The notes: a model not told the origin generated them from the letters alone. Positions 6,924 through 59,872 are shown, counted from the stretch's first letter. The stretch: 64,000 nucleotides of DNA from Candidatus Pacearchaeota archaeon (GCA_041651235.1 JBAZJQ010000001.1:558449-622448), one strand, 5' to 3'. Translations and numbers: made by a program.

Positions 6924-7016
6924 TGATAATGTATAAACTCATATCTTATGCAGATGAGATGATTAAAATTTCGATAAACAGATTACTTATTGTTTGTCTT
7001 AAGAAGATAAGATATT
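6924..7016 (+). repeat. intergenic modular repeat, locus 1 (degenerate A + B + C)
   Basis: TGATAATGTATAAACTCAT ... TGCAGATGAGATGATTAAAATTTCGAT ... ACAGATTACTTATTGTTTGTCTTAAGAAGATAAGATAT. Confidence 0.7.
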
Positions 7017-7037
7017 ATGAATTAAATAGCCTTAAAA

Positions 7038-7145
7038 ATGAACAAACAAAAATTAATTGAAAGCTTGAAAGAAAAAGGATTTAATGAGAAAATTATAACT
7101 GCATTTTTAGTGTTAAAAGAGAGGATTTTGTTTTTGTTCATTTAG
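7038..7145 (+). pseudogene. possible remnant of a protein-L-isoaspartate O-methyltransferase N-terminus
   Basis: 35-codon ORF MNKQKLIESLKEKGFNEKIITAFLVLKERILFLFI resembles Pcm N-termini (..L.E.L...G.I....V..AF..VPRE.F) but stops before the methyltransferase fold. Confidence 0.3.
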
Positions 7146-7206
7146 TAGAATAGGAGGTTTGAAGCTATAATTAGATTTATAAGTCGAATGTTTTTATATA
7201 TTTTCT

Positions 7207-7455
7207 ATGAAAACTAATTACCATCCACCTAGTGCAGAAAGTTTAGGATTAACTAGGGAACAATACAGACTTATGAGTCTAAAAGACTTAGTTAGGTACA
7301 GATCAACTAGAAAAATACCTCAAAAAACAGCAAATGATGAAGAAAGAGGCTCTTCTCAAACACCTCACCAGACTCGCTGTCTTTTTTATCATGGATTATT
7401 TCCTGAATTAGATCCTAATGGAGATTTTGACAGCTGGGCTTCTATCTTAGCTTAG
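7207..7455 (+). CDS. hypothetical protein (orphan)
   Basis: 82-aa ORF, no motif. Confidence 0.3.
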   Translation: MKTNYHPPSAESLGLTREQYRLMSLKDLVRYRSTRKIPQKTANDEERGSSQTPHQTRCLFYHGLFPELDPNGDFDSWASILA

Positions 7456-7465
7456 ACAATAATAT

Positions 7466-9829
7466 TTAAAATTCCCCTAATTTCATTTGCTTTTTGCCTT
7501 CTATTAATTGATTAATATCTACATTGAAAACTTCAAAGATGTTTTCAACTGCTGGAAGAATCTGATTGTTTAAATAATAATTAATATCATATTTTCCTGA
7601 TTCATCAATCATCTTAGCTCTGTCTCTTACAAGTGCTTTTTTATTATCTGATTCTGCAATATAATATTGAATTAACATGCCTAAATTAATTGGAATATTT
7701 TTTGCAATCATTTTTCTTGCAATTGCAATATGAGGAGTATTTGCTTTGTATTCATCAATTGATTTTTTTAGCTGAGTTCTTATTACTAATTCAGATAATT
7801 CAATTTTTCTTTCTTTAATTTTCTTAATTGTTTCTTTAATATATTCCAGTGCTTTTTTTTCATTTCCATCTGTAAGAATTAATTTTAGTATTTTGCTTTG
7901 AACTTCTCTTGCTAAATTACACCAGTCTCTTCTTACTGTTTCAAATCCTCTTATTTTTAGTTTATTATCTTCTGTAATAAGTGCATATTTCTTTTTTGCT
8001 CCAAATTCCCCTGTTCTTTTTGTTACCCAGATTCCTCTTTTATAGAAATCTTCCAGTTCCAGCTCCATTATTCCTGGAAGATGTTCATTAATTTGTTTTA
8101 ATAAATCAAGAGCTTGTTTTTTTGATTTGTTATCCAGACTTACTGCAATACTATCGGTATCACTATAAATTGGCTGAAAATTTGATTGTTCAAATTTTTT
8201 AATTGCTGATTTTATGTTTTCTCTTGCAAAATAAGCTGTTGATGCAGCTGCTTCTAAACAATAATATCTTGCTCCGAAAAATCCTTGATAACCATAAGCT
8301 GCATTTGCTATTAGCTTAAATGCATTGCTTCTTGCTTTTAAAATTGGATTGGGATTTTTATTATATTCTTTTTTAAATTCTCTTCTTTTTTCAATAATCT
8401 GCTTTAGAAGTTCAGGAAAAAATCCTGGTTTTTTTGAAAAATAAACTTTTTTATTATTTATTTCTGAAATTATATTTGTTTTTTCTTTGGATAGAGTTGA
8501 TAGACTGAGATTATAAGACACAATAACACTTGCATACATACTTGAGAAATCAAACATAGCAATATCATTGTATAATCCTGGTTTGGGCTGGAAAACAAAA
8601 GCTCCTTCATATTTTTCTCTTTCAATTCTATTTGAAATTTCTTCATGACTTGCTTTGTGCTTTGCTATTTCATTGAATTTATGGAGATTATGAAGAATAT
8701 AGTTTTCAACATTTTGAGACATTGAATCTCTAGATACATCATAAGGAGGTTCTTGAAGAACTCTTGAAAATTCTAAAATATCTGGCCAAACCTTTTCAAA
8801 TAATTTATATGTTAAAACTGAATCTTGAAGATTATATTCAAAAAAATCTTCCCAATGCTTTTGTGTATGTTCTGTTTTATTCATATCAATATGAGAAATA
8901 TCATTCTTTTTTTCTCCAATAAGTTCATTTGCAACTTCATTTAAAGAAAGAGTTTCTGACTGGAGATACTGGCTGTATGCTACTTGTATAAATCTAAATA
9001 AATCTACATGAGTTATTCCTTTTATTTTTCCTGATAAAACTCTTCCTCTGGAAAAAATAGGAGCAGAATTATCTAATCCTAGTGATAATTTTACTTTGTT
9101 ATGCTCTGCTCTTGCTCTTAAATAAGGCAAATCAAAACCATCTGAAAAATAACCTACTAAAAAATCTGGGGAATATTCTTTTATATATTTTACAAAAGCT
9201 TCTAGCATTTCTGCTTCATCTTTAAAATATTCAACAAAGGATTTTTTTGATTGTTTTTTCCAGGTAAGAACTTTTTTGAAATTATTACCTACTAATGAAA
9301 TCATTAAGATTTCTCCTTTTCCTATTTCAAATTCATTTGTTTCAATATCATAAGCTAGAAATTTCGGATGAAATTGAATATCTGATTGTGATTGTGTTAT
9401 TTTCTCTGCTTTAATTACAAAATCTACTTCTAAATTAGAACATTCATTATTTGATGCAAGTTCTCCTTCAATTTCCCATAACGTTAAAGGTGTTAGCTTA
9501 TTTTCAATTAAGAATTTAGTTATTATATTGATATCATTTTCATAAACTTCAAACTTTTCTGCAATTTCTTTTGTTTGTTTTGATGAGGAGGTATAAACTT
9601 TTAGTGCTTTAACTGGTTTTCCTAAGAAATTTTTGGATTCTTCTTGTATCTTGATTGTATCTAGTTTTTTCTTTGCCTTTTCTATATCTTTAATTATATA
9701 GCACCAGTCATTAAATTGCTTTAAGATACATAATCTCTTGCCTTTCTCATTTCTCCCATATACTTGAATATAGGTTTGATTATTTAGTTCAAAGGATTCA
9801 AAATTAATAGGGATAAATGTGAATTTCAT
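7466..9829 (-). CDS. polB: family-B DNA polymerase
   Basis: Exo I YDIETN, Exo II YNLQDS, Pol A DFSSMYASVIVSYNLS, Pol B KLIANAAYGY, Pol C YSDTDSI; 787 aa, no intein. Confidence 0.95.
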   Translation of the reverse strand: MKFTFIPINFESFELNNQTYIQVYGRNEKGKRLCILKQFNDWCYIIKDIEKAKKKLDTIKIQEESKNFLGKPVKALKVYTSSSKQTKEIAEKFEVYENDINIITKFLIENKLTPLTLWEIEGELASNNECSNLEVDFVIKAEKITQSQSDIQFHPKFLAYDIETNEFEIGKGEILMISLVGNNFKKVLTWKKQSKKSFVEYFKDEAEMLEAFVKYIKEYSPDFLVGYFSDGFDLPYLRARAEHNKVKLSLGLDNSAPIFSRGRVLSGKIKGITHVDLFRFIQVAYSQYLQSETLSLNEVANELIGEKKNDISHIDMNKTEHTQKHWEDFFEYNLQDSVLTYKLFEKVWPDILEFSRVLQEPPYDVSRDSMSQNVENYILHNLHKFNEIAKHKASHEEISNRIEREKYEGAFVFQPKPGLYNDIAMFDFSSMYASVIVSYNLSLSTLSKEKTNIISEINNKKVYFSKKPGFFPELLKQIIEKRREFKKEYNKNPNPILKARSNAFKLIANAAYGYQGFFGARYYCLEAAASTAYFARENIKSAIKKFEQSNFQPIYSDTDSIAVSLDNKSKKQALDLLKQINEHLPGIMELELEDFYKRGIWVTKRTGEFGAKKKYALITEDNKLKIRGFETVRRDWCNLAREVQSKILKLILTDGNEKKALEYIKETIKKIKERKIELSELVIRTQLKKSIDEYKANTPHIAIARKMIAKNIPINLGMLIQYYIAESDNKKALVRDRAKMIDESGKYDINYYLNNQILPAVENIFEVFNVDINQLIEGKKQMKLGEF

Positions 9830-13008: not shown

Positions 13009-13023
13009 ATTTATGGAATATCG

Positions 13024-13126
13024 GTAATGTATTAAGACATGAGATGAGTTGATGAGAAGATTAAGCTTTGTTTGATATCTTTTAAGAATAAATGATTTGT
13101 TATTTGTTTTATTAAGATATTAATAT
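13024..13126 (+). repeat. intergenic modular repeat, locus 2 (A+B+C)
   Basis: GTAATGTATTAAGACAT / GTTGATGAGAAGATTAAGCTTTGTTTGAT / AATGATTTGTTATTTGTTTTATTAAGATATTAATAT; begins 16 nt after the fen stop. Confidence 0.75.
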
Positions 13127-13136
13127 TATTTAAGAA

Positions 13137-14860: not shown

Positions 14861-14914
14861 TTTCTAATTATTTTAAGATGAGATTATTTATAAATCCTTT
14901 GATTTATTTAATTT

Positions 14915-15088
14915 ATAATCTATTAAGACATAAGATGTGCAGATGATGGCTTATTGGTAATATAAAATCTTAATAGCTGAGTTGATGAGCAGATTAAGCT
15001 TTGTTCGATGTTAATTATTATGGATTAAATATAATTTAAATTTTAATAGACAGATGTTTTGTTGTTTGTTTTAAGAAGAGATGGATAT
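14915..15088 (+). repeat. intergenic modular repeat, locus 3 (A+B+B+C)
   Basis: ATAATCTATTAAGACAT / GTGCAGATGATGG / GAGTTGATGAGCAGATTAAGCTTTGTTCGAT / GACAGATGTTTTGTTGTTTGTTTTAAGAAGAGATGGATAT. Confidence 0.75.
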
Positions 15089-15132
15089 TAATTTAGAATA
15101 AAATATTAATTATAAGGATTTGCACGGCCTCC

Positions 15133-15780: not shown

Positions 15781-15880
15781 ATTATATTTAGAAAAAACAG
15801 ATTTAAATATCTTATTGTATTTGCAATTATTGATTTTATATTGAGATTTTAATTATTAATAATGTTAATGACTGATGCTT

Positions 15881-16068
15881 TTTGTAGATGATAAGATTAA
15901 GATGCTGATGATTTATATTTAAAATTATTTATCGATAACTTATTAAGGCATTCGTTGAGTTGATGATAAGATAGCAAGTTCATTAGATTGATTAATGAAA
16001 AATCAAAGATTGCTTATTTCTTTTTTATCTCAGATGACTTGTTGTTTGTTTTGTTAAATTATTGATAT
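15881..16068 (+). repeat. intergenic modular repeat, locus 4 (B+A+B+C)
   Basis: TTTGTAGATGATAAGATTAAGATGCTGATGAT / ATAACTTATTAAGGCAT / GAGTTGATGATAAGATAGCAAG / TCAGATGACTTGTTGTTTGTTTTGTTAAATTATTGATAT. Confidence 0.7.
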
Positions 16069-16121
16069 ATTCAATTAATGTTTTTAGATAGTATTAAAAA
16101 TATATCTTACTTAATTGTTTT

Positions 16122-17506: not shown

Positions 17507-18802
17507 CTACTCCGAAAAGCTAGTTTTTAATGCACTTGGAGCTTCTCCACCATGCCAGGTGAATCTTGGCCTTACTCTTATTGGATATAATCTTTCTGAA
17601 TTATCATCTAAGATTACTGCAGAACCTTTTGAAGAAGGAAGCTGATTCATTGTTTTTTGAATGTTTTCTAATAAATAACTTTGCATAATTTCATTTAGCG
17701 CTTCTCTGTCTTTTTTGTTTGTAAGTTTATGAGACATTACAATATCTGATTGAGTCATAACATCTCTGTGAATTACTCCGGGTTGCTGGGTTGCAAGAAC
17801 CATTGATATTCCGGGCTGTCTCCCTTCCCTTAATAATTGAACAAGAGCATTTGTTGCAGGAGTTTTTTCATTCATTGGAAGAAATTCATGAGCTTCATCA
17901 ATAAAAAGCCAAATCATTGGCATCTCATTTATTTTTTTTGTTGAAAATCCTCTTTGAATCGAATCAATTTCTTCTTTTTTTCTTGCTAGTATTCTTTGAT
18001 TGAATAGCTTCTTTGAAATTAATCCTATTAATAATGCTCTTACATTGAAGGTTGATGTTGAAGAATAAACAGATAAGTCTAATATAGTTGTTATTCCAGG
18101 ATTAACAAGATCTTCTATTTTTGTTGCTTGTTCATTTTTGTTTGCAAACACTTTCCAGGATTTTGCTGCTTCAAATAAAGAAATAGCTGCTTTTCTAGTA
18201 TCTTCTGTTGATTCATTGTCTTTTTTAATCTCTTGAATTATCTCTTCTAAATCGAAATTTTCTTTTAAGTTATAAATTATTTTTTGAATTAAAACTGAAA
18301 TAGGTTCAGTCATACTTAGATTAAAAATAGAAAGCCAATCTTCAATATCTAACTCAGATACGGCTAGTGCAAGTTTTTTATCAACAGGAATTTGTCTTTT
18401 TTCATATTCTTTGAAATATCCTGCAGGGGCCCACACAACAACTGGAAGATTTTTTGATTTTAACTGCCAGTCAGCTAGTAGTTCTTGTTCTTTTTCATTT
18501 TTGTATTTCATTGTCCAGAAGATCCCCATTGTATCAAAAATTATTGGAGCAATATTATTTTTTACTTCATTTGGCAAATCAGAAATTTCTTCTGCAATTA
18601 CTCCTATTGTATATGATTTACCTGAGCCTCTTTTTCCTGCAATCAAAACTACATGGCTTCTTATAACATCCATCCAAATTAAATTAGAAAGAGAGGTATA
18701 ATTTCCCATTGTAACATAACCTTTTCCAAGATAAACTAACCCTTTATCACCAAATTTTTCTTTATCAGATTTAGTTCTTCCTATTATAATATCATATGCC
18801 AT
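17507..18802 (-). CDS. HerA/FtsK-superfamily (DUF87-like) P-loop ATPase
   Basis: Walker A AGKRGSGKSYT, Walker B WLFIDEAHEFLP, 431 aa. Confidence 0.7.
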   Translation of the reverse strand: MAYDIIIGRTKSDKEKFGDKGLVYLGKGYVTMGNYTSLSNLIWMDVIRSHVVLIAGKRGSGKSYTIGVIAEEISDLPNEVKNNIAPIIFDTMGIFWTMKYKNEKEQELLADWQLKSKNLPVVVWAPAGYFKEYEKRQIPVDKKLALAVSELDIEDWLSIFNLSMTEPISVLIQKIIYNLKENFDLEEIIQEIKKDNESTEDTRKAAISLFEAAKSWKVFANKNEQATKIEDLVNPGITTILDLSVYSSTSTFNVRALLIGLISKKLFNQRILARKKEEIDSIQRGFSTKKINEMPMIWLFIDEAHEFLPMNEKTPATNALVQLLREGRQPGISMVLATQQPGVIHRDVMTQSDIVMSHKLTNKKDREALNEIMQSYLLENIQKTMNQLPSSKGSAVILDDNSERLYPIRVRPRFTWHGGEAPSALKTSFSE

Positions 18803-18932: not shown

Positions 18933-19955
18933 ATGGAAGAAGGTATGAGCGATAAAACAGAGATGATGATTGATAATAATCCTGATAAGATGAATATTTC
19001 TAAGATGACTAATAAAATGAAAAAAAATCCCTGGATGGTTTCTAGTATTGTTTTAGGGATTATTGCTATTGTGTTATTAATAATTGTTATGAGGGGAGGA
19101 ATTACTGGAAATGTTATTGGAGGAAGTGATGCTGGTGCTAATTTAGTTGATTATCTTAATGAAAAGACAGGCGGAGGAGTTGAATATGTTTCTAATGAAG
19201 ATTTAGGAAACATATATCAAGTTACTGTTTCTTATCAAGGACAGGAATTACCTGTTTATGTTACTAAAGATGGAAAGTATTTTGTTCAGGGGGCTATTCC
19301 TATAACTGGGGATGTTGTGGATGAAACTACAACTGAAACACCTACCGAAGTTGTTAAATCTGACAAGCCTGTTGTTGAAGCTTATATTTTCTCATACTGC
19401 CCTTATGGATTGCAATTTGAAAAAGCATTATTCCCTGTTTATGATTTATTAAAAGATAAAGCAGATATTAATATTGTTGCAATTGGAGCAATGCATGGGG
19501 AATTTGAAAAAATTGAATCTTTAAGACAAATAAGTATAGAACAATTATATGGAAAAGATAAATTATTTGCGTACTTAAAAGAATTTGATGTTAATGAAGA
19601 TATTGGTGCTTGTAATGGAGATGATACTTGCTTGAATAAATATCTTCCTGCAATATATACTAAACTAGGAATAGATAAGACTAAAGTTGAAAATTATATG
19701 GATACAAGTGCAGAAGCAATTTATAATACACAAGGAGAAAAAGCAAGTTCACTTGGAATTTCTGGATCTCCGACATTTGTAATAAATGGAGCTCAAGTTC
19801 AAGTTGGAAGAACTCCTGAAGCAATAAAAGCAGCAGTATGCGATGCTTTCACAACTGCTCCTAGTGAATGTTCACAGACTTTATCTTCAACATCAGCTAG
19901 TGCAGGATTTGGAGCTTCTGCTGGAAGTTCTGCAAGCAGCACTGCGAGTTGCTAA
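18933..19955 (+). CDS. membrane-anchored DsbA/thioredoxin-fold protein with CPYG in place of CxxC
   Basis: Trimmed to ATG 18933. One TM helix, then IFSYCPYGLQFEKAL and C-terminal LGISGSPTFVINGAQV (DsbA-family cis-Pro loop region), then a Ser/Ala-rich tail. Confidence 0.55.
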   Translation: MEEGMSDKTEMMIDNNPDKMNISKMTNKMKKNPWMVSSIVLGIIAIVLLIIVMRGGITGNVIGGSDAGANLVDYLNEKTGGGVEYVSNEDLGNIYQVTVSYQGQELPVYVTKDGKYFVQGAIPITGDVVDETTTETPTEVVKSDKPVVEAYIFSYCPYGLQFEKALFPVYDLLKDKADINIVAIGAMHGEFEKIESLRQISIEQLYGKDKLFAYLKEFDVNEDIGACNGDDTCLNKYLPAIYTKLGIDKTKVENYMDTSAEAIYNTQGEKASSLGISGSPTFVINGAQVQVGRTPEAIKAAVCDAFTTAPSECSQTLSSTSASAGFGASAGSSASSTASC

Positions 19956-19968
19956 TGGAGAATTTATT

Positions 19969-20334
19969 ATGAAGATTTCTGAATTAAAAACAAATCAAGG
20001 GAATGTTGAAGTAGAAGGGACAATTAAAGAAATTGGTGAAATAAGGACTTTTAATAAATTTGGAAGAGAATTAAGAGTTGCTAATGCTATTTTAAGTGAT
20101 GATTCTGGAAGTGTTAAATTAACTTTATGGAATGATGATGCAACTAGATTCAGCCAAGGAGATAAAATCAAGATAAGCAATGGTTATGTTGGAGAATTTC
20201 AAGGTGAAAAGCAATTATCTTCTGGAAAGTTTGGAAAAATAGAAAAATTAGGCTCAGGTCCTAAATCTAAAGATGATACAGATGAGATAATTGAAGAGTT
20301 AGGTGAAGTTGAAGAAGAATCTGGAGATTATTAA
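19969..20334 (+). CDS. OB-fold single-stranded nucleic-acid-binding protein (SSB/RPA-like)
   Basis: Trimmed to ATG 19969. VEVEGTIKEIGEIRTF..FGRELRVANAILSDDSGSVKLTLWND OB-fold pattern plus an acidic C-terminal tail DDTDEIIEELGEVEEESGDY. Confidence 0.55.
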   Translation: MKISELKTNQGNVEVEGTIKEIGEIRTFNKFGRELRVANAILSDDSGSVKLTLWNDDATRFSQGDKIKISNGYVGEFQGEKQLSSGKFGKIEKLGSGPKSKDDTDEIIEELGEVEEESGDY

Positions 20335-20344
20335 TAAATTATTG

Positions 20345-20403
20345 GATGAATTTTTTATAATATAAAATTTAAATGCTGAATTGATGATTAAGATGTTTAT
20401 GAT
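20345..20403 (+). repeat. intergenic modular repeat, locus 5 (D+B)
   Basis: GATGAATTTTTTATAATATAAAATTTAAATGCTGAATTGATGATTAAGATGTTTATGAT; begins 11 nt after the stop. Confidence 0.7.
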
Positions 20404-20455: not shown

Positions 20456-21958
20456 TCATATTACTCTTCTTTCTCTTTCTGGTATTTGTTTTGAAGTTCT
20501 TTTTTTACGTTTATATTCAATATATCTTGATTTTGCATCTAAATATACTTCAGGAATATTTCCATGCATATAAAAATCTCTATTTAATCCTTTATAATTA
20601 AATACACATTTTCCATGTGAACTGGAAAGTCTCATTAATGTCATAGGACTTCTATTTAATAAATCTCCTAAATCTGAATAAGAGAGACTATGTCTATTTT
20701 TTAATACAAATCCAAGGATAAATCTCGCTTTCATACCATTTTCATCTCTTGAATCTGATAAAATTTCTTGTTTCTGGAGCTTTAAGTCTTGATATGCAAA
20801 ATCATATAATTTATTCAAATCTAATTCAATTTGTTTTTCATCTTTTTTATTTTTTAAATAATTTTTATCTTCTTTATTTTGCTGTGGATATAGCCCCCAG
20901 ATTTTTTTAAAATCTTCTTCAGGGTTTCCTGTTGGAATAAATTCATTCCCATTTAAATAACTCTTCACTTTTCTACAAGCTAATATAACTGTTGCATGAT
21001 TTTTGTCTCCCATTATTCTTCCTATGTTTGGATAGCTTCCAATATGATCTCCATTAATTGTAGGGCTGTCTTGAAAATTTTCTCTTAATAAAAACATTAC
21101 TAATTGTCGTATTTTGCTTATTTCTCTTGTTTTTTTACTTCCCTCTATATCCTCTCTAGTGATTCCTTTTTCTTGTATTATTTCATATAATCTGCCTAAA
21201 TATCCATCAAAGTTTGTTTGAGTAATTGTTTCTTTTGTTTTTTCTTCAAGGTTTGTTCCTTGTTGGGTGAGATAGTCAGTTACATCAGGATCATTGGTAT
21301 ACCATACTCCTGCTTTTAAGGCATTAGTAATTACTCTTTTCATTTTTGCTTGTTGTTCAAAAAAAGTTTGTTCTTGATATTTTGGTTTAGGTCTAAATCT
21401 TATTTCTGCATAGTATTGATCAGGTGTTCCTATTTTTCTTTTAGTTAATATTTCTCCTATAGTTGTTAGTTGTTCTAAAAATGATTCTATTTTGTTATCT
21501 CTTTCTGGGTCAGTTACAGGTGCTGCAATTCTTAATTTGTATAAGTTATTTTCTTCAGGTTCAAAAACAAGATTTAATATAACTTTTTCTTCAGAATTTG
21601 CTAATTGTTCTAAATCTGGGTCTGAAATTCTTAGTTTTCTTTGTAGTGTAAGCTGATGCATTACTGCTAGAGGGGTTGTTTTTATTCTTGTAACTTGATA
21701 TCCTTCAATTAAATTATCTATTATTGGTTGGAAAGCTTGCAAATCTTCTTCTTGAGTTTTTCTTGGAATTAACTGATTCTCTCTTTTTACATATAATGGA
21801 GGAATAGGATAATCTTTTAATTGGTCTGTTCTAACAACAAAAATTTGTTCTTTTGGAGGTATGACTTCAACAATAGATGCATTAGAAGAAAGAGTTATTA
21901 TTTGAGATTTTTGACTATTTGGAATATCTGTTGTTTCTTCTTTGATATCTTGTATCAT
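20456..21958 (-). CDS. protein with two DnaA domain-IV-like (Bac_DnaA_C) HTH modules, third gene of the RFC operon
   Basis: KKTREISKIRQLVMFLLRE...IGRIMGDKNHATVILACRKV parallels E. coli DnaA [19 protein letters not shown]...[20 protein letters not shown]. A weaker second copy is SRDENGMKARFILGFVLKN..SYSDLGDLLNRSPMTLMRL. ATGA overlap with the rfcL stop. Confidence 0.6.
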   Translation of the reverse strand: MIQDIKEETTDIPNSQKSQIITLSSNASIVEVIPPKEQIFVVRTDQLKDYPIPPLYVKRENQLIPRKTQEEDLQAFQPIIDNLIEGYQVTRIKTTPLAVMHQLTLQRKLRISDPDLEQLANSEEKVILNLVFEPEENNLYKLRIAAPVTDPERDNKIESFLEQLTTIGEILTKRKIGTPDQYYAEIRFRPKPKYQEQTFFEQQAKMKRVITNALKAGVWYTNDPDVTDYLTQQGTNLEEKTKETITQTNFDGYLGRLYEIIQEKGITREDIEGSKKTREISKIRQLVMFLLRENFQDSPTINGDHIGSYPNIGRIMGDKNHATVILACRKVKSYLNGNEFIPTGNPEEDFKKIWGLYPQQNKEDKNYLKNKKDEKQIELDLNKLYDFAYQDLKLQKQEILSDSRDENGMKARFILGFVLKNRHSLSYSDLGDLLNRSPMTLMRLSSSHGKCVFNYKGLNRDFYMHGNIPEVYLDAKSRYIEYKRKKRTSKQIPERERRVI

Positions 21959-23154
21959 TTTATCTCTGATAATAATTCCTGCTTTTTCTCTTTTAAATAT
22001 TCCTGTTCTTTATCATCTAGATCTAATGACTCATAATCTTTTTGAGAGAATATTAAAGGGAACAAAAAGCTTTCTTTCATCGCTTTCTTCTTAGATATAT
22101 GATTAAATTGAGCATATTTTGATACTATTGATTTCTTTTTTGCATTTTTCTGGTTTGAGAGCCAAATTTTTAGTATTCTTGAAGGTCTTTTATATCCTGT
22201 GAATTTTTTGTATTTAATTTTAGTTGCAGAAGATATTCCTGCTGATAAAAAGAAGTTCTCATAAACTAAAAATCTCCAGTATTGCTGTCTATATATTCTT
22301 CCTTTAAATAAATCTGCTTTGCTTAAACTATCATAAGCTTTTGCTAATGCCTGCCCTTGATATTCCATAGGAATATTTTCTTCTACCCATAGAATTATCT
22401 CATCTAGTTCCATCTGAGTTTCATCTAATATAGAAAGTGTTTTTTTGTTTGGAGATTCTTGGAATATTTTTTTTAATGCATTGAAAATGCTTTCTTCTTT
22501 TTCTCTTTCACTTATTTCTTCAATAAATGCATCTTCACCAAGGGAAAGAACTGATTGCAAGTCATTTAATGCTGCTCTTATATCCCCTCTTGATTTACTT
22601 GAGATTAAATTTAATGTTTCTGGCTTCAAAGTCCTATTTTCTTTTTGAAGAACTGCATGAAGAATATCTAATACAATCTCTTGTTTTAGCTCTTTTAAGC
22701 TAACTAGCTGGCATTTTTTTCTTAGTAGACTGAATTTTTGCTGCCAAATATCATTTGCAGTTATAATAATTGGGTGGGGTGTTTTGTCAATTAGCGCGAT
22801 TAATTCTGGAAGTCCTCCTCTGTCCGAGGCTGTTATTCCATCTGCTTCATCCATTAAAATTAGCTTTCCTTTTTTAAATAAAGATTGCTGTTTTATTGCA
22901 GGAGATAAAACTTCTTCTAATTTTGAACGATTTCTCAAATCACTTGCATTTAGTTCAAATAATTCTAAATTTAATTCATTTGCAAGTGCAATTGCAATTG
23001 ATGTTTTTCCTGTTCCAACAGGACCGCTTAGTATTAAGGCTCTTTTTAATGGAAATTTTTTGAAAAATATTTGAACTTCCTGGATAACTGAGTCTTGTCC
23101 CTTTATTTCTGAGAATTTTTTTACACGATATTTTTCAATTAATGGAAGAGTCAT
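21955..23154 (-). CDS. rfcL: replication factor C large subunit
   Basis: Walker A LSGPVGTGKTS, Walker B LILMDEADGI; overlaps rfcS by 4 nt. Confidence 0.85.
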   Translation of the reverse strand: MTLPLIEKYRVKKFSEIKGQDSVIQEVQIFFKKFPLKRALILSGPVGTGKTSIAIALANELNLELFELNASDLRNRSKLEEVLSPAIKQQSLFKKGKLILMDEADGITASDRGGLPELIALIDKTPHPIIITANDIWQQKFSLLRKKCQLVSLKELKQEIVLDILHAVLQKENRTLKPETLNLISSKSRGDIRAALNDLQSVLSLGEDAFIEEISEREKEESIFNALKKIFQESPNKKTLSILDETQMELDEIILWVEENIPMEYQGQALAKAYDSLSKADLFKGRIYRQQYWRFLVYENFFLSAGISSATKIKYKKFTGYKRPSRILKIWLSNQKNAKKKSIVSKYAQFNHISKKKAMKESFLFPLIFSQKDYESLDLDDKEQEYLKEKKQELLSEIK

Positions 23155-24125
23155 TTTATAATGCCTTTGCCAGCAAGAACAAATCCTGCTAAAAGAGCTT
23201 CTAATTGAATAAATTCATCACTGCCTTCAACTAATCTAAATTCAACTTCCCCTGTTTTCTCTGTTAACCGAACTTTAAGCTCATCATCAATCTGAAGATT
23301 CCATATTTCTTTTTGAATTGATTTTATAATATCTGTTCCTGAAACAGATTCTTTAAGCATAACCTCTAATAATTTTTCTTTTGATTTAATAAAATCTCCT
23401 GAAAGAGCATATTCTAGAACAATTTTAATGTCTGCTGGTTTTGCACTTGAAGCTAAGGTATTAATTAAATCAGGGGTTATTGAAGGAGAAATTGATGCAG
23501 ATGCTTGCAATAAGTTAATAACTCTTCTGCAGTCTCCTTCTGAAGCTTCATATAATGATTCTATTGTTACATCTGAAATTTGAAGTTTTTCTTTTTCTGC
23601 AATTAATCTTATTCTTTTTTCTATATCTTTTTTTTCTAATAGTTTAAATCTAAAAATAGCACATCTTGACTGAATAGGGTCTATTATTTTTGAAGAGTAG
23701 TTGCAGGACATAATAAATCTGCAGGTTGAAGTGTAGTTTTCCATTGTTCTTCTTAAAGCCTGTTGAGCTTCTCTTGTTAATGCATCTGCTTCATCTAAAA
23801 AAATAACTTTAAAAGGGACATTTCCAATTGCTTTTGTTCTTGCAAAATCCTTTACTTTTTGCCTTACAACATCAATTCCTCTTTCATCAGAAGCATTTAA
23901 TTCTAAGTAATTTTCTTTCCAATTAATCCCAAATAATTCCCTTACAATTATTAGAGCTAGTGTTGATTTTCCTGTTCCAGCAGGACCTGCAAATAGTAAA
24001 TGAGGTATATTAAGAGATTTAGTTAGATTTTTTGTCTTTTTTATTATTTCATCCTGCCCTACAACTTCTTCAAATTTTTTAGGTCTATATTTTTCAGTCC
24101 AAATAGCAGTATTGTTATTATCCAT
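23151..24125 (-). CDS. rfcS: replication factor C small subunit
   Basis: WTEKYRPKKF, FAGPAGTGKST, VIFLDEADALT, SRC motif PIQSRCAIFRF. Confidence 0.95.
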   Translation of the reverse strand: MDNNNTAIWTEKYRPKKFEEVVGQDEIIKKTKNLTKSLNIPHLLFAGPAGTGKSTLALIIVRELFGINWKENYLELNASDERGIDVVRQKVKDFARTKAIGNVPFKVIFLDEADALTREAQQALRRTMENYTSTCRFIMSCNYSSKIIDPIQSRCAIFRFKLLEKKDIEKRIRLIAEKEKLQISDVTIESLYEASEGDCRRVINLLQASASISPSITPDLINTLASSAKPADIKIVLEYALSGDFIKSKEKLLEVMLKESVSGTDIIKSIQKEIWNLQIDDELKVRLTEKTGEVEFRLVEGSDEFIQLEALLAGFVLAGKGIIK

Positions 24126-24158: not shown

Positions 24159-24250
24159 GATTGTTATAATGGGATGTATGGTAGATAAAAAGGTATTAAT
24201 AATATAAAAAATATACAATAAGATATCTGTTATTTAGCTTAATGTCCGTA

Positions 24251-24560
24251 GTTAAGATGTTTGTTCTATAAGATATTGATATTTATAATTTATTAAGACA
24301 TATGTTATGCATAGGATATTAAGATGTTGATGATGATTTTTACTGAATTTTTTATAATCTTATAGAACAAACATTTTGTAGATGAGAAGATTAAAATGTT
24401 TTTGACATTTATTATTAATTGATAATTATTTTAATATTAATGAGAGTATTTTGATGAATAGATGTTTTGTTGTTTGTCTTAAGAAGATATAGATATATTA
24501 CTATATTTGGAATGTTAAGGTCTTATACTTTATACAGAAGAGGGTTAAGATGTTTATAAT
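24251..24560 (+). repeat. intergenic modular repeat, locus 6 (densest cluster; several A/B/C/D modules plus an internal inverted repeat)
   Basis: ATAATTTATTAAGACAT, GCATAGGATATTAAGATGTTGATGAT, TACTGAATTTTTTATAATC, TTGTAGATGAGAAGATTAAAATGTTTTTGAC, AATAGATGTTTTGTTGTTTGTCTTAAGAAGATATAGATAT, ACAGAAGAGGGTTAAGATGTTTATAAT. Also an imperfect (18/19) inverted repeat AAGATGTTTGTTCTATAAG (24254) / CTTATAGAACAAACATTTT (24359). Confidence 0.75.
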
Positions 24561-24613
24561 TAATCTGATAAATATATATTAATATAATTTTATTAAAATA
24601 TTAAGAATTAAGC

Positions 24614-27194: not shown

Positions 27195-27209
27195 TTCTGT
27201 TGGATTGGG

Positions 27210-27259
27210 ATAGTCTATTAAGATAAATGCGTTGTTTGATATGATAAGATGTTAATGAG
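27210..27259 (+). repeat. intergenic modular repeat, locus 7 (A + B-like)
   Basis: ATAGTCTATTAAGATAA ATGCGTTGTTTGATATGATAAGATGTTAATGAG; begins 16 nt after the stop. Confidence 0.6.
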
Positions 27260-27359
27260 ATAATTAAATATGAATTTCTGATGATTGAGTTTATCTGCTG
27301 ATTTTTATTGTTCTTCGAATAATAAACATTTAAAAAGAATCCGAAAGTTAACTAATTAT

Positions 27360-28031: not shown

Positions 28032-28152
28032 TTTTTATAATTTATTATGACAAATGTTTTGCAGATGAAAGGATTAAAATATTTAAGATATATGCAAATT
28101 TTTATTAATTAAAGATTTATTATTTAATTTGACAGATAGAGAGATATAAGAA
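28032..28152 (+). repeat. intergenic modular repeat, locus 8 (D/A + B + C-like)
   Basis: TTTTTTATAATTTATTATGACAA / TTTTGCAGATGAAAGGATTAAAATATTTAAGAT / GACAGATAGAGAGATATAAGAA; begins 16 nt after the stop. Confidence 0.65.
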
Positions 28153-29596: not shown

Positions 29597-29670
29597 TTTT
29601 TTGTTCTATTTTTTATCTTTATCTTTTTTATTTTTTAATCGCTTAATCAGAGTTCTAATTTTAATATACT

Positions 29671-29724
29671 GATAATTTATTAGGGCATAATTTGTGCAGA
29701 TGAGAAGATTAAGAGGTTTATAGG
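29671..29724 (+). repeat. intergenic modular repeat, locus 9 (A+B)
   Basis: GATAATTTATTAGGGCAT / TTTGTGCAGATGAGAAGATTAAGAGGTTTATAGG. Confidence 0.7.
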
Positions 29725-30436: not shown

Positions 30437-30552
30437 AAGAATTATAATCTATTAGATAATTTATGAAGACATTCATTTCTTTGAGGAGAGGGAGACATTA
30501 ATAAAACTTGATTTTTCGTTAGTTTTATTAATATGCATATTTTATTCATAAT

Positions 30553-33917: not shown

Positions 33918-34052
33918 GAGTAAAGATGTTTATTAGATACGATTAATGTATTAATAATTTATTAAGACATCAGTTTTGTTTGAGATAGTTAAGATATGTT
34001 TGATTAGCTTTATGAACAAATGATTGTTTGTGTGTTTTATTATAATACTGAT
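33918..34052 (+). repeat. intergenic modular repeat, locus 10 (A+B+C)
   Basis: AATAATTTATTAAGACAT / GTTTTGTTTGAGATAGTTAAGATATGTTTGAT / GAACAAATGATTGTTTGTGTGTTTTATTATAATACTGAT. Confidence 0.7.
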
Positions 34053-34071
34053 TTTTGTATATTTGTATAAA

Positions 34072-39571: not shown

Positions 39572-39608
39572 ACAAAAGATTAATAAGGTTGGAAATTATG
39601 AAATAATT

Positions 39609-39887: not shown

Positions 39888-39900
39888 GCTCCAAACTAAA
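39887..39900. repeat. right arm of the perfect 14-bp inverted repeat
   Basis: AGCTCCAAACTAAA, overlapping the ORF stop codon. Confidence 0.9.
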
Positions 39901-42520: not shown

Positions 42521-44037
42521 TATTTCCTCCAGATTTTTTGGGTTCTTAATTTATTTAAATCATTTCCATACATTTCTCTTAAATCAGTTATATTAAAGAA
42601 TTCCATTATTATTCTATCAAAGCCAGGGCCCCAAGCTAATACTGGAATATGTTTTCCAAAAAATGGAATTGTAACTTCTGGCCTGAACATTCCTGCTCCT
42701 CCAAATTCAACCCATTTTTTATGAATTGGATGGAAAACATCAATTTCCAAGCTAGGTTCTGTATATGGGAAATATCCTGGACGAATTCTTATTTTTTCAT
42801 AACCCATTTTTTCAAAGAATTCCTTTAAATAACCTAATAACTGCCTGAAATTTGCATTTTCATCAACTACAATTCCTTCTGTTTGATTAAATTCAAATCC
42901 ATGGGACCAGTCAACTGTTTCATTTCTAAAGCATTTTCCTAATGCAAAATATTTAGCTGGAAATTCTTTATTTTCTGCTATTTTCTTTAAAGTTTGAGCA
43001 GATAAACAAGTTGTATGAGTCCTCATTACTACTTTTTTTGCATCTTGTTCATTCCATTCATAATTCCAGCCTTTGCTTCCTTTTATTTTTCCTTCATGAG
43101 CTGCTTTAATTTCTTCTATTAGTTTTTTTTCAGGAAGTTTAGCTTCTTTATTTTTAATAAAAAAAGTATCTTGCATTTCTCTTACTGGATGATCTTGAGC
43201 TGTAAATAAAGAATCAAAATTCCAAAATCCTGATTGAATTAAATTACCTGTCATTTCTTTGAAACCCATTTCTAACCAGATTTTTTTTGCATAATCTGTT
43301 GCTTGATTAACAAAATGTTTTTTTCCACCATAGATTCTTGGAACAGGACTTTGAATATCATATCTTCTGAATTTTTTACCTTTACACCCATTGGATTTAA
43401 GCATTTGAGGTGTAACAGCTTCTATTAAATCATCTTTTTTTAAATCTTGACTCATTAGTTCTTCTCCTAATTTTGTTAGATTTATTTCAGTTGTTTTTTT
43501 ATCCTGCATATCAATTATATTTTTTCTTGATTTTAAATTTTCAAATGCAAATTTTTCTTCTGGTTTTAAATCATTTAGATTTCTAGGAAGGGATTCTAAG
43601 AATTGCTCTTCAAATGATTTTTTAGAAATTTCTTCTTTTGTTCCTGAAAGCATTAAATTTCCATTTATAACATTGACAAGTGCTTTTCTTTTTAAAACTC
43701 CTAAAGCTGCTTTAAATTCATTATCATTAAGCTTTGTTTGTTTTTGAGCTTCTTGCAATGAAATAGAATTTTTTTCAGAAATTATATTCATAAGATTTCT
43801 TTCTGGAAGTCCCTTTTTTACATACAAAAGTCCATTTATTCCTAATTCAATTAGTTTTTCTTGTTTTGAGCTTATTTCAACTATCTTTTTATTAGATAAG
43901 AATTCTAATGCTCTTAGTATAGCTACTTCCTCTAAATTAGTCTCTTCCTTTATTTTATCTAAACTCTCTTTTAAATAAGGTATTATTTTTCTTTCATTAG
44001 GGGATAAAGATTCAATAAGCTTGTTTAAATTATCCAT
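42520..44037 (-). CDS. pheS: phenylalanyl-tRNA synthetase alpha subunit (archaeal type)
   Basis: Class II motifs: HPVREMQDTFF, MRTHTTCLS, GKCFRNE, GFEFNQTEG, AWGPGFDRI. Confidence 0.9.
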   Translation of the reverse strand: MDNLNKLIESLSPNERKIIPYLKESLDKIKEETNLEEVAILRALEFLSNKKIVEISSKQEKLIELGINGLLYVKKGLPERNLMNIISEKNSISLQEAQKQTKLNDNEFKAALGVLKRKALVNVINGNLMLSGTKEEISKKSFEEQFLESLPRNLNDLKPEEKFAFENLKSRKNIIDMQDKKTTEINLTKLGEELMSQDLKKDDLIEAVTPQMLKSNGCKGKKFRRYDIQSPVPRIYGGKKHFVNQATDYAKKIWLEMGFKEMTGNLIQSGFWNFDSLFTAQDHPVREMQDTFFIKNKEAKLPEKKLIEEIKAAHEGKIKGSKGWNYEWNEQDAKKVVMRTHTTCLSAQTLKKIAENKEFPAKYFALGKCFRNETVDWSHGFEFNQTEGIVVDENANFRQLLGYLKEFFEKMGYEKIRIRPGYFPYTEPSLEIDVFHPIHKKWVEFGGAGMFRPEVTIPFFGKHIPVLAWGPGFDRIIMEFFNITDLREMYGNDLNKLRTQKIWRK

Positions 44038-46999: not shown

Positions 47000-47019
47000 T
47001 TTATGTTTTTATTATCTTT

Positions 47020-47057
47020 GGTAATTTATTGTTTGTTTTATTAAGATATTGATATTC
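47020..47057 (+). repeat. intergenic modular repeat, locus 12 (A fused to C)
   Basis: GGTAATTTATTGTTTGTTTTATTAAGATATTGATATTC. Confidence 0.6.
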
Positions 47058-47193: not shown

Positions 47194-47226
47194 AAAAGAG
47201 AGGGAAGGGAGGGGAGCTCCTCTCTT
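47194..47226. other. GC-rich stem-loop with purine/G-tract loop
   Basis: AAAGAGAGG(47194-47202) pairs with CCTCTCTTT(47218-47226); loop GAAGGGAGGGGAGCT; followed by CTTTT. Confidence 0.4.
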
Positions 47227-47295
47227 TCTTTTAAATTGATATGAAAAATATTTAAAGTATCTTTTCTTAGTTATAATTGAAGGAGGTTAATGAAA

Positions 47296-47469
47296 ATGCA
47301 AAGTAAATGGTATGCTTGGCTGATTTTGATTTTAGGTATCTTGTTAATTTTACCCAAGATAGGAATCACGCAACTTGGAGATTTAACTATCGGAATTACC
47401 TCTTGGTTAGTCCCAATAATAATTCTTGTTGTTGCAATAATTGGCTTGATAAAAAGCTACAAAAAATAA
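47296..47469 (+). CDS. small two-TM membrane protein
   Basis: 57 aa, below the ORF-track cutoff. MQSKWYAWLILILGILLILPKIG...; SD AGGAGGT 8 nt upstream. Confidence 0.4.
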   Translation: MQSKWYAWLILILGILLILPKIGITQLGDLTIGITSWLVPIIILVVAIIGLIKSYKK

Positions 47470-47482
47470 ATCTTTAATTTTT

Positions 47483-48247
47483 TTATCTTATTTTTTGATA
47501 ACCTAAAATCCTATTTATAATAAATCTTGAACCTACAAATTCTGAAATTATTGCAGATATAACTAAATCTCCGACTGCTGCTTTTAAAATCCCCCCAGTT
47601 ATGGGGATTCTTGCTTGTCTTGAAAATTCATTTATAATCTCGGTTATTTCTTCTTGAGTTAGACTAAATTCAGTTGTGTTTACTCTGTTATTCTTTTTTA
47701 CAAGAACATTTTTTCCTGGACCAGAGCATTCAATTGATTGTATTTTTTGATCTTTTAATAACTGCTCCATCTTACCTAAATTAAAATCAGTTGGTCTTGG
47801 TTGGGCTACTGGTTGAATTTCTTTTAAAGTTTGCATTTGAGGACTCATTTCTTTTACCAACTTTTGACTTGGAATCATTGCAGGAGATTTCATGAATTGC
47901 CTGGGTCTTTGGATATCTGGATGAGGGGTAATTGATTGTTTTATCCTATGAAAAATTGGTTTTCTCTTTTCAATTATTGGAGAAGAAATAAATTGTTTTG
48001 GCTCTAATGGTTTTACTGGAATTATAATCTGCGTTTCTAATTGTTTTTTTTCTTGAATTGAAGGCATAAATGCTTTTCCTATTGCTTGTTCAGGAGATTC
48101 TAAAGGAGCTATAAATTTTTGTCTTAATTTTTCTACTTCAATTAATTTTTTTCTTTCTTCTTCGCTTTTAGAATTTAATAATAATGCGGCTGTGAATTTT
48201 CTTAAAAATATAATTCTATCTTCAGGTTTAATTAACTTTAGTGCCAT
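47483..48247 (-). CDS. protein ending in a FlaI/CpaF/VirB11-type N-terminal region but lacking the ATPase core
   Basis: IQSIECSGPGKNVLVKKNNRVNTTEFSLTQEEITEIINEFSRQARIPITGGILKAAVGDLVISAIISEFVGSRFIINRI parallels I.eImvNGp..v.vE..G.......F.....l..ii.ri....gr.i....P..dA.L.DGsRv.a......G..ftIRK. The ORF stops where the Walker A motif would follow. Confidence 0.4.
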   Translation of the reverse strand: MALKLIKPEDRIIFLRKFTAALLLNSKSEEERKKLIEVEKLRQKFIAPLESPEQAIGKAFMPSIQEKKQLETQIIIPVKPLEPKQFISSPIIEKRKPIFHRIKQSITPHPDIQRPRQFMKSPAMIPSQKLVKEMSPQMQTLKEIQPVAQPRPTDFNLGKMEQLLKDQKIQSIECSGPGKNVLVKKNNRVNTTEFSLTQEEITEIINEFSRQARIPITGGILKAAVGDLVISAIISEFVGSRFIINRILGYQKIR

Positions 48248-48633
48248 TAAAACTTTGGAAGAGGTTTGGGTCTTGAAGCTTCAAAATTTTCTGGTGAAAG
48301 GGGATGTCTAGGTTCTCTTTGTTTTATTTTGTCTTCCATTAAAATGATCCCCCTCGCAATTGTTTTGTTCTGGTCCAATAAAGAATCTAATTTTTTTAAT
48401 AATTCGTTATCCGATTTATTAATTGAACCTTCTGATTTATCCTCGTATTTTTCAGAAAAACTTTTTGCAGAAATTTCAAATAATTGAAGCATTTTAGAAA
48501 TATTCGTTGAAAGCTCATCGAACCTTACTGCAAGATTAGTAAGAACTTTTTGAAGATTAATAAAGTTGTTGAGTAATGCTTTTTCTATATCTTCTTTATC
48601 CATTATTTTATTTGCACTAGTCTTTTTTGTCAT
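48247..48633 (-). CDS. hypothetical coiled-coil protein, co-transcribed with 47483..48247
   Basis: 128 aa; its stop overlaps the downstream start by 1 nt. Confidence 0.4.
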   Translation of the reverse strand: MTKKTSANKIMDKEDIEKALLNNFINLQKVLTNLAVRFDELSTNISKMLQLFEISAKSFSEKYEDKSEGSINKSDNELLKKLDSLLDQNKTIARGIILMEDKIKQREPRHPLSPENFEASRPKPLPKF

Positions 48634-49590: not shown

Positions 49591-49600
49591 AGTAGATTAT

Positions 49601-49647
49601 CAATAATTTATTAAGACATAAACTCGGCAGAGGATAAGAGTATCTTT
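49601..49647 (+). repeat. intergenic modular repeat, locus 13 (A + degenerate B)
   Basis: CAATAATTTATTAAGACAT / ACTCGGCAGAGGATAAGAGTATCTTT; begins 11 nt after the stop. Confidence 0.6.
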
Positions 49648-54427: not shown

Positions 54428-54446
54428 AATTAATTCTTGAATTTAT

Positions 54447-54590
54447 TTATGAATTTTTTATAATATTAATTTTTAGATGATTTGGAGATATAAGATTAAG
54501 CTTTGTTGGATATTTCTAATTGATGAAATTTTTATAATATTAAAATTGAAATGATGAGGTGATGAGGTTATTAAGATGTTTACAATTATT
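54447..54590 (+). repeat. intergenic modular repeat, locus 14: tandem duplication of a ~73-bp D+B unit
   Basis: Unit 1 TTATGAATTTTTTATAATATTAATTTTTAGATGATTTGGAGATATAAGATTAAGCTTTGTTGGAT. Unit 2 TTGATGAAATTTTTATAATATTAAAATTGAAATGATGAGGTGATGAGGTTATTAAGATGTTTACAAT. Confidence 0.7.
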
Positions 54591-56319: not shown

Positions 56320-56637
56320 AATGAATATGAAAAAGTGGAACAGAACTTAAAAAAGTAATGTTATAATCCACTAAAAATCTCTTTTTATTAATTTTTAAGT
56401 ATGAATGTGAAAGGTGAATATCAAACCCCGGAAAAGCCAGTTTCAAGCCAAAAAGGCAAGTCTTTGCTCTTCTGGGGAAAAAGAGGTGATAATAATTATA
56501 GAGGTTTTAAGTATTTAAATCTTTCGGTATGTTGTAACTGACTAATGACATCAGTTGTTCTACACTTTCTTTTTATTTAAATTTAGATAGGAAAAGCATT
56601 TATAAGTTTAGTTATAATTTAATATAGAGAATTAAAA

Positions 56638-58987: not shown

Positions 58988-58988
58988 A

Positions 58989-59113
58989 CTTATAATTTAT
59001 TGATGAATTTTTTAGTAATATAAAATTTTAAACAATGAGGTATCTGTTGATTAAGTTATTCTTATAAACATTTTAATCTTATCATCTTTTTTATTTGTCT
59101 TAATAGATTATAA
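58989..59113 (+). repeat. intergenic modular repeat, locus 15 (A/D + B, then inverted B + A)
   Basis: CTTATAATTTATTGATGAATTTTTTAGTAATATAAAATTTTAAAC / AATGAGGTATCTGTTGATTAAGTTATTCTTAT, then AAACATTTTAATCTTATCATC and TTATTTGTCTTAATAGATTATAA (reverse complements of B and A). Begins 2 nt after the GluRS stop. Confidence 0.7.
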
Positions 59114-59215
59114 AAATGGAGGAATATCTCAAATAATAATATTTATAAAGTGAAAAATCCTCGATATATTGATTAGATTTGTCTAATTAAAAAATATATG
59201 AAAGGAGGTATGAAA

Positions 59216-59680
59216 ATGAAGAATAAAAGAGCACAATCAGAAATCATAACTACTGTTTTAATCATATTATTAGTTCTTGCTGCAATTGTTATTGTATGGC
59301 AGGTAATTAATAGTACTGTTACTGAAGGCGGTAATCAAGTTACAAGTGGCGCGAGTTGTGTTGGAATTGGAATGGAAGTAGCTAAAGGAACTGTAGCCAA
59401 CACATATATAATCAAGAGAACTTCTGCAGGAGAAGTTTTTGAAGGAACTGTAACAGAAACTGTTCTTATTAATGGACAAACTGCAACTAAGGGTGCAACT
59501 ACTGGATGGGGATATACTATAAATCCGACAACTGCTAATTTGTTTAAAGATCCTTTAACAAGTGCAACAATAACTGTAACTGAAGATAATGCAGCACCAA
59601 CAACTGCAATTACAAAGGTTGAAGCAGCATTAAAAGTTGATGGAGATGTTTGTGGTTCAACAGGAACTTTAACAATTTAA
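59216..59680 (+). CDS. archaeal type IV pilin-like protein (class III signal peptide)
   Basis: MKNKRAQSEIITTVLIILLVLAAIVIVW: basic leader, A/Q cleavage context, hydrophobic helix. SD AAAGGAGGT. Confidence 0.6.
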   Translation: MKNKRAQSEIITTVLIILLVLAAIVIVWQVINSTVTEGGNQVTSGASCVGIGMEVAKGTVANTYIIKRTSAGEVFEGTVTETVLINGQTATKGATTGWGYTINPTTANLFKDPLTSATITVTEDNAAPTTAITKVEAALKVDGDVCGSTGTLTI

Positions 59681-59746
59681 TTTTTTATTTTTTTATTTTT
59701 TTAATATATTTTATTTTTTAACTTTAATTGGAATTTTTATATTTTG

Positions 59747-59872
59747 GTAATTTATTAAAACAATCGATTTGCAGATAATTAGATTAAGATGTGTTTGAGA
59801 TTATTTTTTAATTGATATTTTTGATGAACAGATATCTTGTTGTTTGTCTTAATAAGATATCGGCATATTGAT
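59747..59872 (+). repeat. intergenic modular repeat, locus 16 (A+B+C)
   Basis: GGTAATTTATTAAAACAA / ATTTGCAGATAATTAGATTAAGATGTGTTTGAGAT / GAACAGATATCTTGTTGTTTGTCTTAATAAGATATCGGCATATTGAT. Confidence 0.75.

Follow-up and report, generated by a model that had tools for sequence, protein, structure and literature searches.

A dispersed modular repeat family in the intergenic DNA of a Candidatus Pacearchaeota archaeon, possibly an old MITE/BOX-like element

Cellular genomes are among the smallest known in the DPANN archaea; even so, in the stretch of DNA analysed here about one fifth of the intergenic sequence belongs to one family of non-coding repeats of about 100-190 bp. What kind of element is this family, and why do nearly all of its copies point in the same direction? 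The stretch (64,000 nt, referred to as the window; JBAZJQ010000001.1:558449-622448 of assembly GCA_041651235.1) is part of a 647,740-bp contig of a metagenome-assembled genome from an uncultured Candidatus Pacearchaeota archaeon, a member of the DPANN group, to which seven window proteins are identical. Its G+C content is about 28% and its genes are of the housekeeping type, with PolB, FEN-1, HerA, an SSB/RPA-like protein, the large and small RFC subunits, several aminoacyl-tRNA synthetases, ScpA and a P-type ATPase. Coding DNA makes up about 55 kb and intergenic DNA 8.75 kb.

A first reading of the window (the original prediction) had claimed a dispersed, modular repeat family at 16 or more loci. 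Profile hidden Markov models (HMMs) of the two repeat units, termed A-B and C, were made from the copies in the window. The A-B model gave 16 matches at the cut-off of E<0.1, 12 of these at E<1e-7, and the C model gave eight, all at E<1e-5. In ten dinucleotide-type shuffles of the window only 0-2 A-B and 0-1 C matches were found, and a pattern search for C allowing up to three mismatches yielded three matches as compared with none in 100 shuffles. Families D1-D9 of a de novo repeat search coincide in position with the repeats of the first reading. The family is thus genuinely present, and the claim that it is confined to intergenic DNA was borne out as well: all 24 HMM matches are intergenic and none lies within coding DNA. 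The repeats occupy 16 sites (about 250 per Mb) with elements of 50-330 bp, adding up to 1,930 nt or about 22% of the 8,750 nt of intergenic DNA. A 7.9-kb Logan contig of the same organism (L101), which extended the window by 5.2 kb leftward, contributed one clear extra copy and a weaker second one, both oriented as in the window.

The family could not be assigned to any named repeat, as had been supposed. A search of the window for CRISPR, tRNA and Rfam families returned four tRNAs and nothing else, the elements were without an Rfam match even at E<=5, and no insertion sequence (IS) match fell on them. We regard it as a previously undescribed family of a known kind of element.

The building blocks are a 57-nt A-B unit and a C unit of roughly 45 nt. 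The alignment of A-B is essentially gap-free across 11 strong copies, which share a mean pairwise identity of 61% (maximum 77%) as compared with 31% for random spacer 57-mers. The identity between copies is unrelated to their distance along the window (Spearman -0.03) and gene conversion between neighbouring copies was rejected for this reason. The full unit reads TATYGRTAAT-tTATTAAGACA, 9 free nt, TTnTG-cAGATGAG-aAGATTAAG-(ATG/CTT)TGTTTGA, a variable part of 0-60 nt and TTTTGATGAACAGATGTTTTGTTGTTTGTCTTAAGAAGATATnGATAT. Its left arm A (TATYGRTAATtTATTAAGACA) and its right arm, the end of C (TGTCTTAAGAAGATATnGATA), form a terminal inverted repeat, which is imperfect and about 21 nt long, and the outer arms can also be written TATYGRTAAT...TTAAGACA. 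Between the arms lie B, a purine-rich box (TTnTGcAGATGAGAAGATTAAG) whose distance from A is constant, the variable middle and a G/T-rich stretch. Open reading frames (ORFs) that start in B comprise only 2-17 codons. Such micro-ORFs (MRRL..., MF...) were discarded as an explanation because their lengths and stops vary and several copies are without ATG.

This anatomy departs in part from the one first proposed. Four modules had been named; A, B and C stand, whereas the separate module D proved to be a variant of A in which TTTTTATAAT replaces TATTGATAAT with the same gapless spacing to B. The order A-B-(B)-C had to be given up, as it is A-B as a whole that recurs, (A-B)n, with C as an optional last part. 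A 28-nt consensus proposed for B did not match anywhere at up to three mismatches, whereas a 21-nt B core matches 10 times on the + strand and once on the - strand. Besides the full unit we found derivatives: single A-B units, (A-B)n in tandem, C by itself and a fusion of A with C.

The mutual inverted repeat between A and C was recovered as a feature of the family: over 21 aligned positions 70.1% standard pairs are formed in register and 37-49% when one arm is slid by 1-3 columns. A long hairpin had been suggested from this relationship. However, A and C pair equally well within and between elements (14.9 versus 15.0 of 29 positions), and shuffling the partners left 70.6% pairs as against 70.1% in the real combinations, with 346 of 500 shuffles reaching the real value. 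Covariation between the two arms is therefore not seen. RNAalifold predicted no pairs in A-B, and in C only a 7-bp A-U/G-U hairpin (-2.5 kcal/mol) without compensatory change. Folding z-scores of whole elements ranged from -0.4 to -2.8, unremarkable on the + strand and worse on the - strand. An RNA hairpin or long A:C stem was thus rejected.

We considered whether the repeats could nevertheless be genes for small non-coding RNAs or another transcribed structured RNA. A or D would then act as a weak TATA-like promoter, transcription would start in B, and the G/T-rich hairpin of C with a U-tract would end the transcript. The distance between the AT-rich A/D arm and the conserved purine-rich B is indeed constant at 21-23 nt, the hairpin of C is formed on the + strand only and is followed by a U-rich run, and in one copy of a related genome (L109) a GC-rich hairpin and T7 come after the B box. 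At first sight A/D also resembles the TATA boxes of the source genome, and the T-runs of D and C its oligo-T terminators. The promoters of the source genome, however, follow a sharp rule: in 16 of 39 genes a box resembling TTTATAAA precedes the ATG at a distance of exactly 21 nt, examples being those upstream of 42520-44037 (-), 48247-48633 (-) and 29783-30436 (+). Most mRNAs are therefore probably leaderless. With a position weight matrix trained on these leaderless promoters, most real promoters reach 9-16 bits, with 4.3 as the 90th percentile of random windows, whereas the A/D arms score between -3.5 and +5.6 bits in the window and between -5.9 and +5.6 when four relatives are included. No copy in any genome scores like a real promoter, and A/D as promoters were rejected. 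Extrapolating from about 16 sites per 64 kb, some 160 such RNA genes would be implausible for a genome of 0.65 Mb. Together with the weak folds, the missing consensus structure of A-B, the missing compensatory changes in C and the lack of Rfam matches, this makes an origin as RNA genes improbable.

Among known RNA classes the archaeal box C/D small RNAs were considered, as UGAUGA- or AGAUGA-like boxes of the GATGA type occur in B and before C, and in some copies a symmetric TGATAA-N16-NTGA-GT-TGATGA-N16-TTGA can be read. The spacers are 16 nt long instead of about 12, though, the D'-C' gap is 2 nt, the boxes are degenerate and the D boxes are UUGA or CAGA in place of CUGA. Neither a complementary terminal stem nor a variable guide-like region is present, and none of the elements matches an Rfam C/D family. 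We regard membership in this or another known RNA class as extremely improbable. Integron attC sites were also dismissed, as the ends are TATYGRTAAT and GATAT and not GTTRRRY, and the neighbours are housekeeping genes (PolB, FEN-1, RFC, aminoacyl-tRNA synthetases) and not cassettes.

The distribution over the spacers is uneven. Copies are present in three of four convergent spacers, eight of 21 between + strand genes, four of 14 between - strand genes and one of nine divergent spacers. Spacers into which a gene 3' end falls are favoured and divergent spacers, where promoters lie, are avoided, which is the pattern expected of tolerated insertions. Alternatively, the repeats could be 3'-end modules of the upstream + strand genes, that is, terminators or elements of the 3' untranslated region. 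Eleven of the 16 sites lie within about 60 nt past a + strand stop codon, and the D variant places a T6 run directly past four stops (20334, 28016, 54427 and 58987). It had been claimed that the element starts 2-20 nt behind seven + strand genes; this applies to six of them at a distance of 3-15 nt (stops at 13008, 20334, 28016, 49590, 54427 and 58987), whereas the copy behind the stop at 27194 is degenerate (HMM E=3). The four sites that lie only behind ends of - strand genes are nevertheless in + orientation too, and the complement that would be read there is A/C-rich and without a T-run. A-type units do not have any T5 run. At 29597 and 59681 strong T-runs precede the element, so that it is not needed for termination. 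With the orientation wrong for - strand genes a terminator role was rejected, and we give the proposal of 3'-end modules very little credence.

The orientation of the copies is the one odd feature of the family. A-B matches are found 15 times in + and once in - orientation and C matches eight times in + only (binomial p = 5e-4); with the copy in the L101 flank A-B amounts to 16 to one. All four sites between two - strand genes are in + orientation. The bias in the window is real and independent of the direction of the flanking genes, and the single exception, located at 59064-59115, is the one named in the first reading. Outside the elements the GC skew of the + strand ranges from +0.17 to +0.27 across all classes of spacer, and the skew at third codon positions is positive on average. 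From both it appears that the window lies within one replichore and that + is the G-rich, leading-type strand, the direction of replication being deduced from GC skew alone.

To see the family outside the source genome, syntenic loci from seven related genomes (L093, L096, L099, L100, L108, L109, L110 and L111) were used, which were chosen at FEN-1, GluRS or the ATPase and whose proteins are 65-80% identical; at this divergence exact empty sites are not alignable. The family is present in five of the seven genomes. A cross-genome HMM matched at Pacearchaeota loci only in a search space of 768 kb, which consisted mostly of unrelated control loci. Pattern scans of genome and metagenome collections gave single chance matches in unrelated bacteria and none from the contigs of the source genome. 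A link to viruses was rejected, as two scans of viral contigs gave six isolated chance matches and zero matches, respectively.

The five genomes share the frame TATYRRTAAT ... TTTG-nAGATGA-N4-5-GATTAAG, and each has its own consensus, for example TATCAATATCTTATAAAACTTAACG in L108 and GGTAATTTATTAAACGATTTTAAG in L100. Copies are more alike within a genome (identity 0.63 in the window and 0.59 in L108) than between genomes (0.49), and the nearest neighbour of a copy is in its own genome for 13 of 13 copies of the source organism and four of four of L108. Where two genomes each have a copy at the same site, the pair is 0.39-0.53 identical and thus no more alike than other copies. Occupancy also differs: L110, the closest relative at the ATPase, is almost free of copies and L099 and L096 are without copies, over the 7-21 kb covered in these three. 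Some sites occupied in L111 and L108 are vacant in the window, the reverse being seen as well. Some sites agree in place and direction, namely those upstream of TYW2, between the genes for a 70-aa and a 215-aa protein, after FEN-1, before the radical-SAM gene and after GluRS. At the last of these both genomes have a - copy, in L108 a - strand unit at 5702-5650 (E=3.3e-5). Downstream of SSB the site is shared, but the copy of L111 is in the opposite orientation.

The orientation bias is not a general feature of the family. When a single cross-genome HMM was used for all, the relatives showed five + and six - copies as compared with 15 to one in the source organism (Fisher p = 0.009), although their loci have the same sign of GC skew as the window with a G-rich + strand. 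The results thus do not support a replication rule that would hold strictly throughout the clade, and the original claim on orientation holds for the window only.

We favour the reading that the repeats are an old, lineage-specific family of non-autonomous elements of the MITE/BOX type (MITE, miniature inverted-repeat transposable element) in one Pacearchaeota clade, and hold it with about even confidence. It fits the anatomy, the placement, the decay products, the restriction to a clade, the consensus of each genome and the turnover of sites; for the anatomy, a MITE-like architecture as first suggested is the best fit. The copies would have been spread in trans by a transposase recognising the arms and would have survived only where they are harmless, close to the 3' ends of genes and not near promoters. 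Tandem duplication may have amplified the A-B sub-unit locally, copies may later have decayed into solo arms and fusions, and each genome of the clade may have amplified its own variant. The simplest mechanism for the one-way orientation would be a strand-specific insertion that is coupled to replication.

MITEs, like the repeats described here, are small, non-coding and dispersed in intergenic copies with imperfect terminal inverted repeats. Truncated or fused derivatives, taxon-specific families and differences in presence or absence, here between the window and the related genomes, are further common features. For two DPANN archaea, a Woesearchaeon and Altiarchaeum, high MITE densities of 105-146 per Mb are reported (PMC11602168), which is of the same order as the site density found here. 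The likeness to BOX elements is one of layout. BOX elements of Streptococcus pneumoniae consist of boxA-boxB(n)-boxC; they are likewise modular, intergenic and non-coding, with a variable number of internal modules and partly complementary end modules. The repeats of the window differ in that (A-B)n precedes one C and in that the predicted structure is weak, and no sequence relation is expected with an archaeal host.

Several points weigh against the MITE/BOX-like reading, some of which at the same time distinguish the repeats from MITEs. Insertion in one orientation only is unexpected for classical elements with terminal inverted repeats, and a simple MITE model does not explain the near-total bias of 15 to one. 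A parent IS, transposase or other mobility gene was found neither among about 28 window proteins scanned nor among the Pfam annotations precomputed for the genes in about 150 kb of related loci. As candidate target-site duplications we saw only direct repeats at inconsistent offsets in seven full elements, where the AT-rich flanks make short matches meaningless. Young, near-identical copies are missing, the highest A-B identity being the 77% mentioned above. The 9-nt spacer within A-B is fixed in length and free in sequence, and the internal boxes are more conserved than this spacer, with a variance of column conservation of 3.9 as compared with a 99th percentile of about 3.0 under uniform neutral decay; both hint at constraint on the boxes. 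Finally, the five matches in place and direction between genomes fit inheritance as well as re-insertion.

Other mobile elements offer parallels for the orientation. REP/REPIN-RAYT elements and the PATEs derived from IS200/IS605 have strong hairpins at or near their ends. The genome-specific consensus populations and the long persistence of both are reminiscent of our family, and the single-strand transposition of PATEs ties the orientation of copies to the replication strand, a tie that the bias towards the G-rich strand in the window might reflect. In contrast, strong end hairpins are absent here and the relatives show no strand bias. Many IS families are reported to have a family-specific orientation bias relative to replication that does not result from selection after insertion (PMC3971601, Gomez et al. 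2014). Such a consistent orientation would explain a one-way family, but those elements are autonomous bacterial IS and the replication direction of the window is deduced from GC skew only.

The hints at constraint and the almost absolute orientation leave some room for the proposal that the repeats are DNA-level cis-elements kept by the host. A sequence-specific protein would read the boxes and co-evolve with them, and in the source genome the sites would be polar to the replication strand, serving for example chromosome organisation or a replication-linked process. The boxes proposed as being read are the TATCGATA-like palindrome at both ends, TTAAGA and AGATGA-N4-5-GATTA. Conservation of the boxes beyond uniform decay, with a spacer of fixed length and free sequence, and one frame kept across five genomes agree with this proposal. 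So does the consensus of each genome, which would be expected if the sites track a factor acting in trans. The orientation follows the G-rich strand and not the genes, is almost absolute in the source genome, and agrees with the relatives at five of the sites matching in position. On the other hand, the relatives are unbiased and one shared site is occupied in opposite directions, copies are few or missing over the 7-21 kb covered in L110, L099 and L096, truncation or the loss of one arm affects many copies, and no candidate protein is linked to the sites. We consider retention by the host unlikely.

A bolder version of this proposal holds that the elements are strand-polar DNA signposts, about 160 oriented sites by extrapolation, which would be read by a co-evolving protein and label the leading strand for machinery linked to replication or segregation. 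This we judge to be a long shot. No polar system comparable to KOPS or Chi is known in archaea. A flip of the orientation together with the GC skew, if true, would be evidence for either replication-coupled insertion or a polar host signal in archaea. Since the family is common to related Pacearchaeota with a variant per genome, it could also be used as a lineage marker and as a record of the survival of mobile DNA in reduced genomes.

A protein with a helix-turn-helix domain is encoded in the window. The 500-aa archaeal protein at 20456-21958 (-) contains the C-terminal helix-turn-helix domain of bacterial DnaA (PF08299, E=1e-18, residues 261-331). Its gene is arranged head-to-tail with those for the large (21955-23154) and small (23151-24125) RFC subunits and adjoins the SSB/RPA-like gene (19843-20334). 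As a binder of the repeats it was rejected, because the gene is absent at the syntenic L111 locus, which still has copies.

The individual sites of the window are in + orientation unless stated otherwise. The first is a full A-B-C element at 6921..7019 between the gene for a 319-aa protein (stop at 6880) and a broken gene for protein-L-isoaspartate methyltransferase (PCMT), with A-B at 6921-6975 (E=1.6e-10) and C at 6970-7012 (E=2.8e-9). The PCMT gene is broken and shortened to a fragment at 7039-7145 and an ORF at 7207-7455 (+), and is intact in the relative L093 (198 aa). Another full A-B-C (13019..13129; A-B E=6.5e-13, C E=2.9e-7) lies in a convergent spacer and starts 11 nt past the FEN-1 stop. 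A compound A-(truncated B)-A-B-C at 14911..15091 is located between two - strand genes (A-B at 14911-14947, E=2.6e-8, and 14952-15008, E=3.3e-9; C at 15042-15088, E=1.3e-9). The only occupied divergent spacer, upstream of TYW2, contains at 15872..16071 a solo B (15872-15910, E=3e-4) followed by A-B (15930-15976, E=1.5e-9) and C (16026-16069, E=5.9e-8). Right after the stop of the SSB/RPA-like gene at 20334 a D-B element, D being the A variant, is found in a convergent spacer (20338..20402), with an exact 19-mer of D at 20345-20363 and B at 20375-20395. The compound cluster at 24233..24560 is composed of a B/short-C remnant, A-B (24280-24333, E=2.1e-8), A'-B (24351-24405, E=2.3e-9), a long variable part, C (24450-24498, E=1.6e-10) and a B remnant.

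The degenerate A-B past the stop at 27194 (27205..27290), upstream of tRNA-Glu, was recognised by reading the sequence and is under the HMM threshold. About 15 nt past the stop at 28016 there is an A'(D-type)-B without C (28033..28087, E=3e-10), and at 29667..29721 an A-B without C (E=1.3e-12). Upstream of the P-type ATPase gene we noticed a weak remnant of the A arm at 30455..30491, where the A-B HMM gave E=0.016 and TAATTTATGAAGACAT has one mismatch to A. An A-B-C at 33949..34053 lies between two - strand genes (A-B E=7.6e-8; C at 34008-34053, E=2.6e-7). The A/C fusion is a solo C arm at 47019..47055 (E=7.9e-6), a deletion derivative. In a convergent spacer, 8 nt past the stop at 49590, A-B is present at 49598..49644 (E=1.7e-9). 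Two tandem D-B units follow the stop at 54427 (54441..54585; repeat family D18), with D at 54448 and 54522 (one mismatch each) and B at 54548-54583 (E=0.097). Directly past the GluRS stop at 58987 a D-type arm and a B-like box occupy 58990..59060 (repeat family D9), and next to them is the sole inverted A-B unit (59064..59115, - strand, HMM E=0.0024). The last element is a full A-B-C at 59743..59868 upstream of the radical-SAM gene (A-B E=4.6e-11, C E=6.4e-12).

Some further features of the window were noted. The region at about 39170-39900 (+) is GC-rich for the source genome and apparently non-coding with many possible stems, and the ORF at 39564-39887 in it is probably spurious. Rfam gave no match to it even at E<=1, and it is possibly a large RNA of divergent sequence, RNase P or SRP RNA for instance. 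Four genomes share a conserved non-coding block upstream of ScpA (window 56420-56560, L108 2630-2760, L109 8290-8420, L110 10680-10800); it reads CTCTTCTGGGGAAAAAGAGGTGATAATAA.TATA...TTTCGGT, is without an Rfam match and is a candidate for a small RNA or leader that has been conserved. The gene for ribosomal protein L41e (MKRSSRRWKKKNQMRWKWQRKRLRRVKKKRKQRRGE) is located at 24611-24722 (-), under the ORF length cut-off. The HerA/DUF87 ATPase contains intein domains in L093 (17920-20997, 1025 aa) and is intein-free in the window (17507-18802, 431 aa). An uncalled hydrophobic ORF of 58 aa at 47296-47470 (+) has a GGAGGT Shine-Dalgarno-like box and is preceded by a GC-rich hairpin at about 47195-47230.

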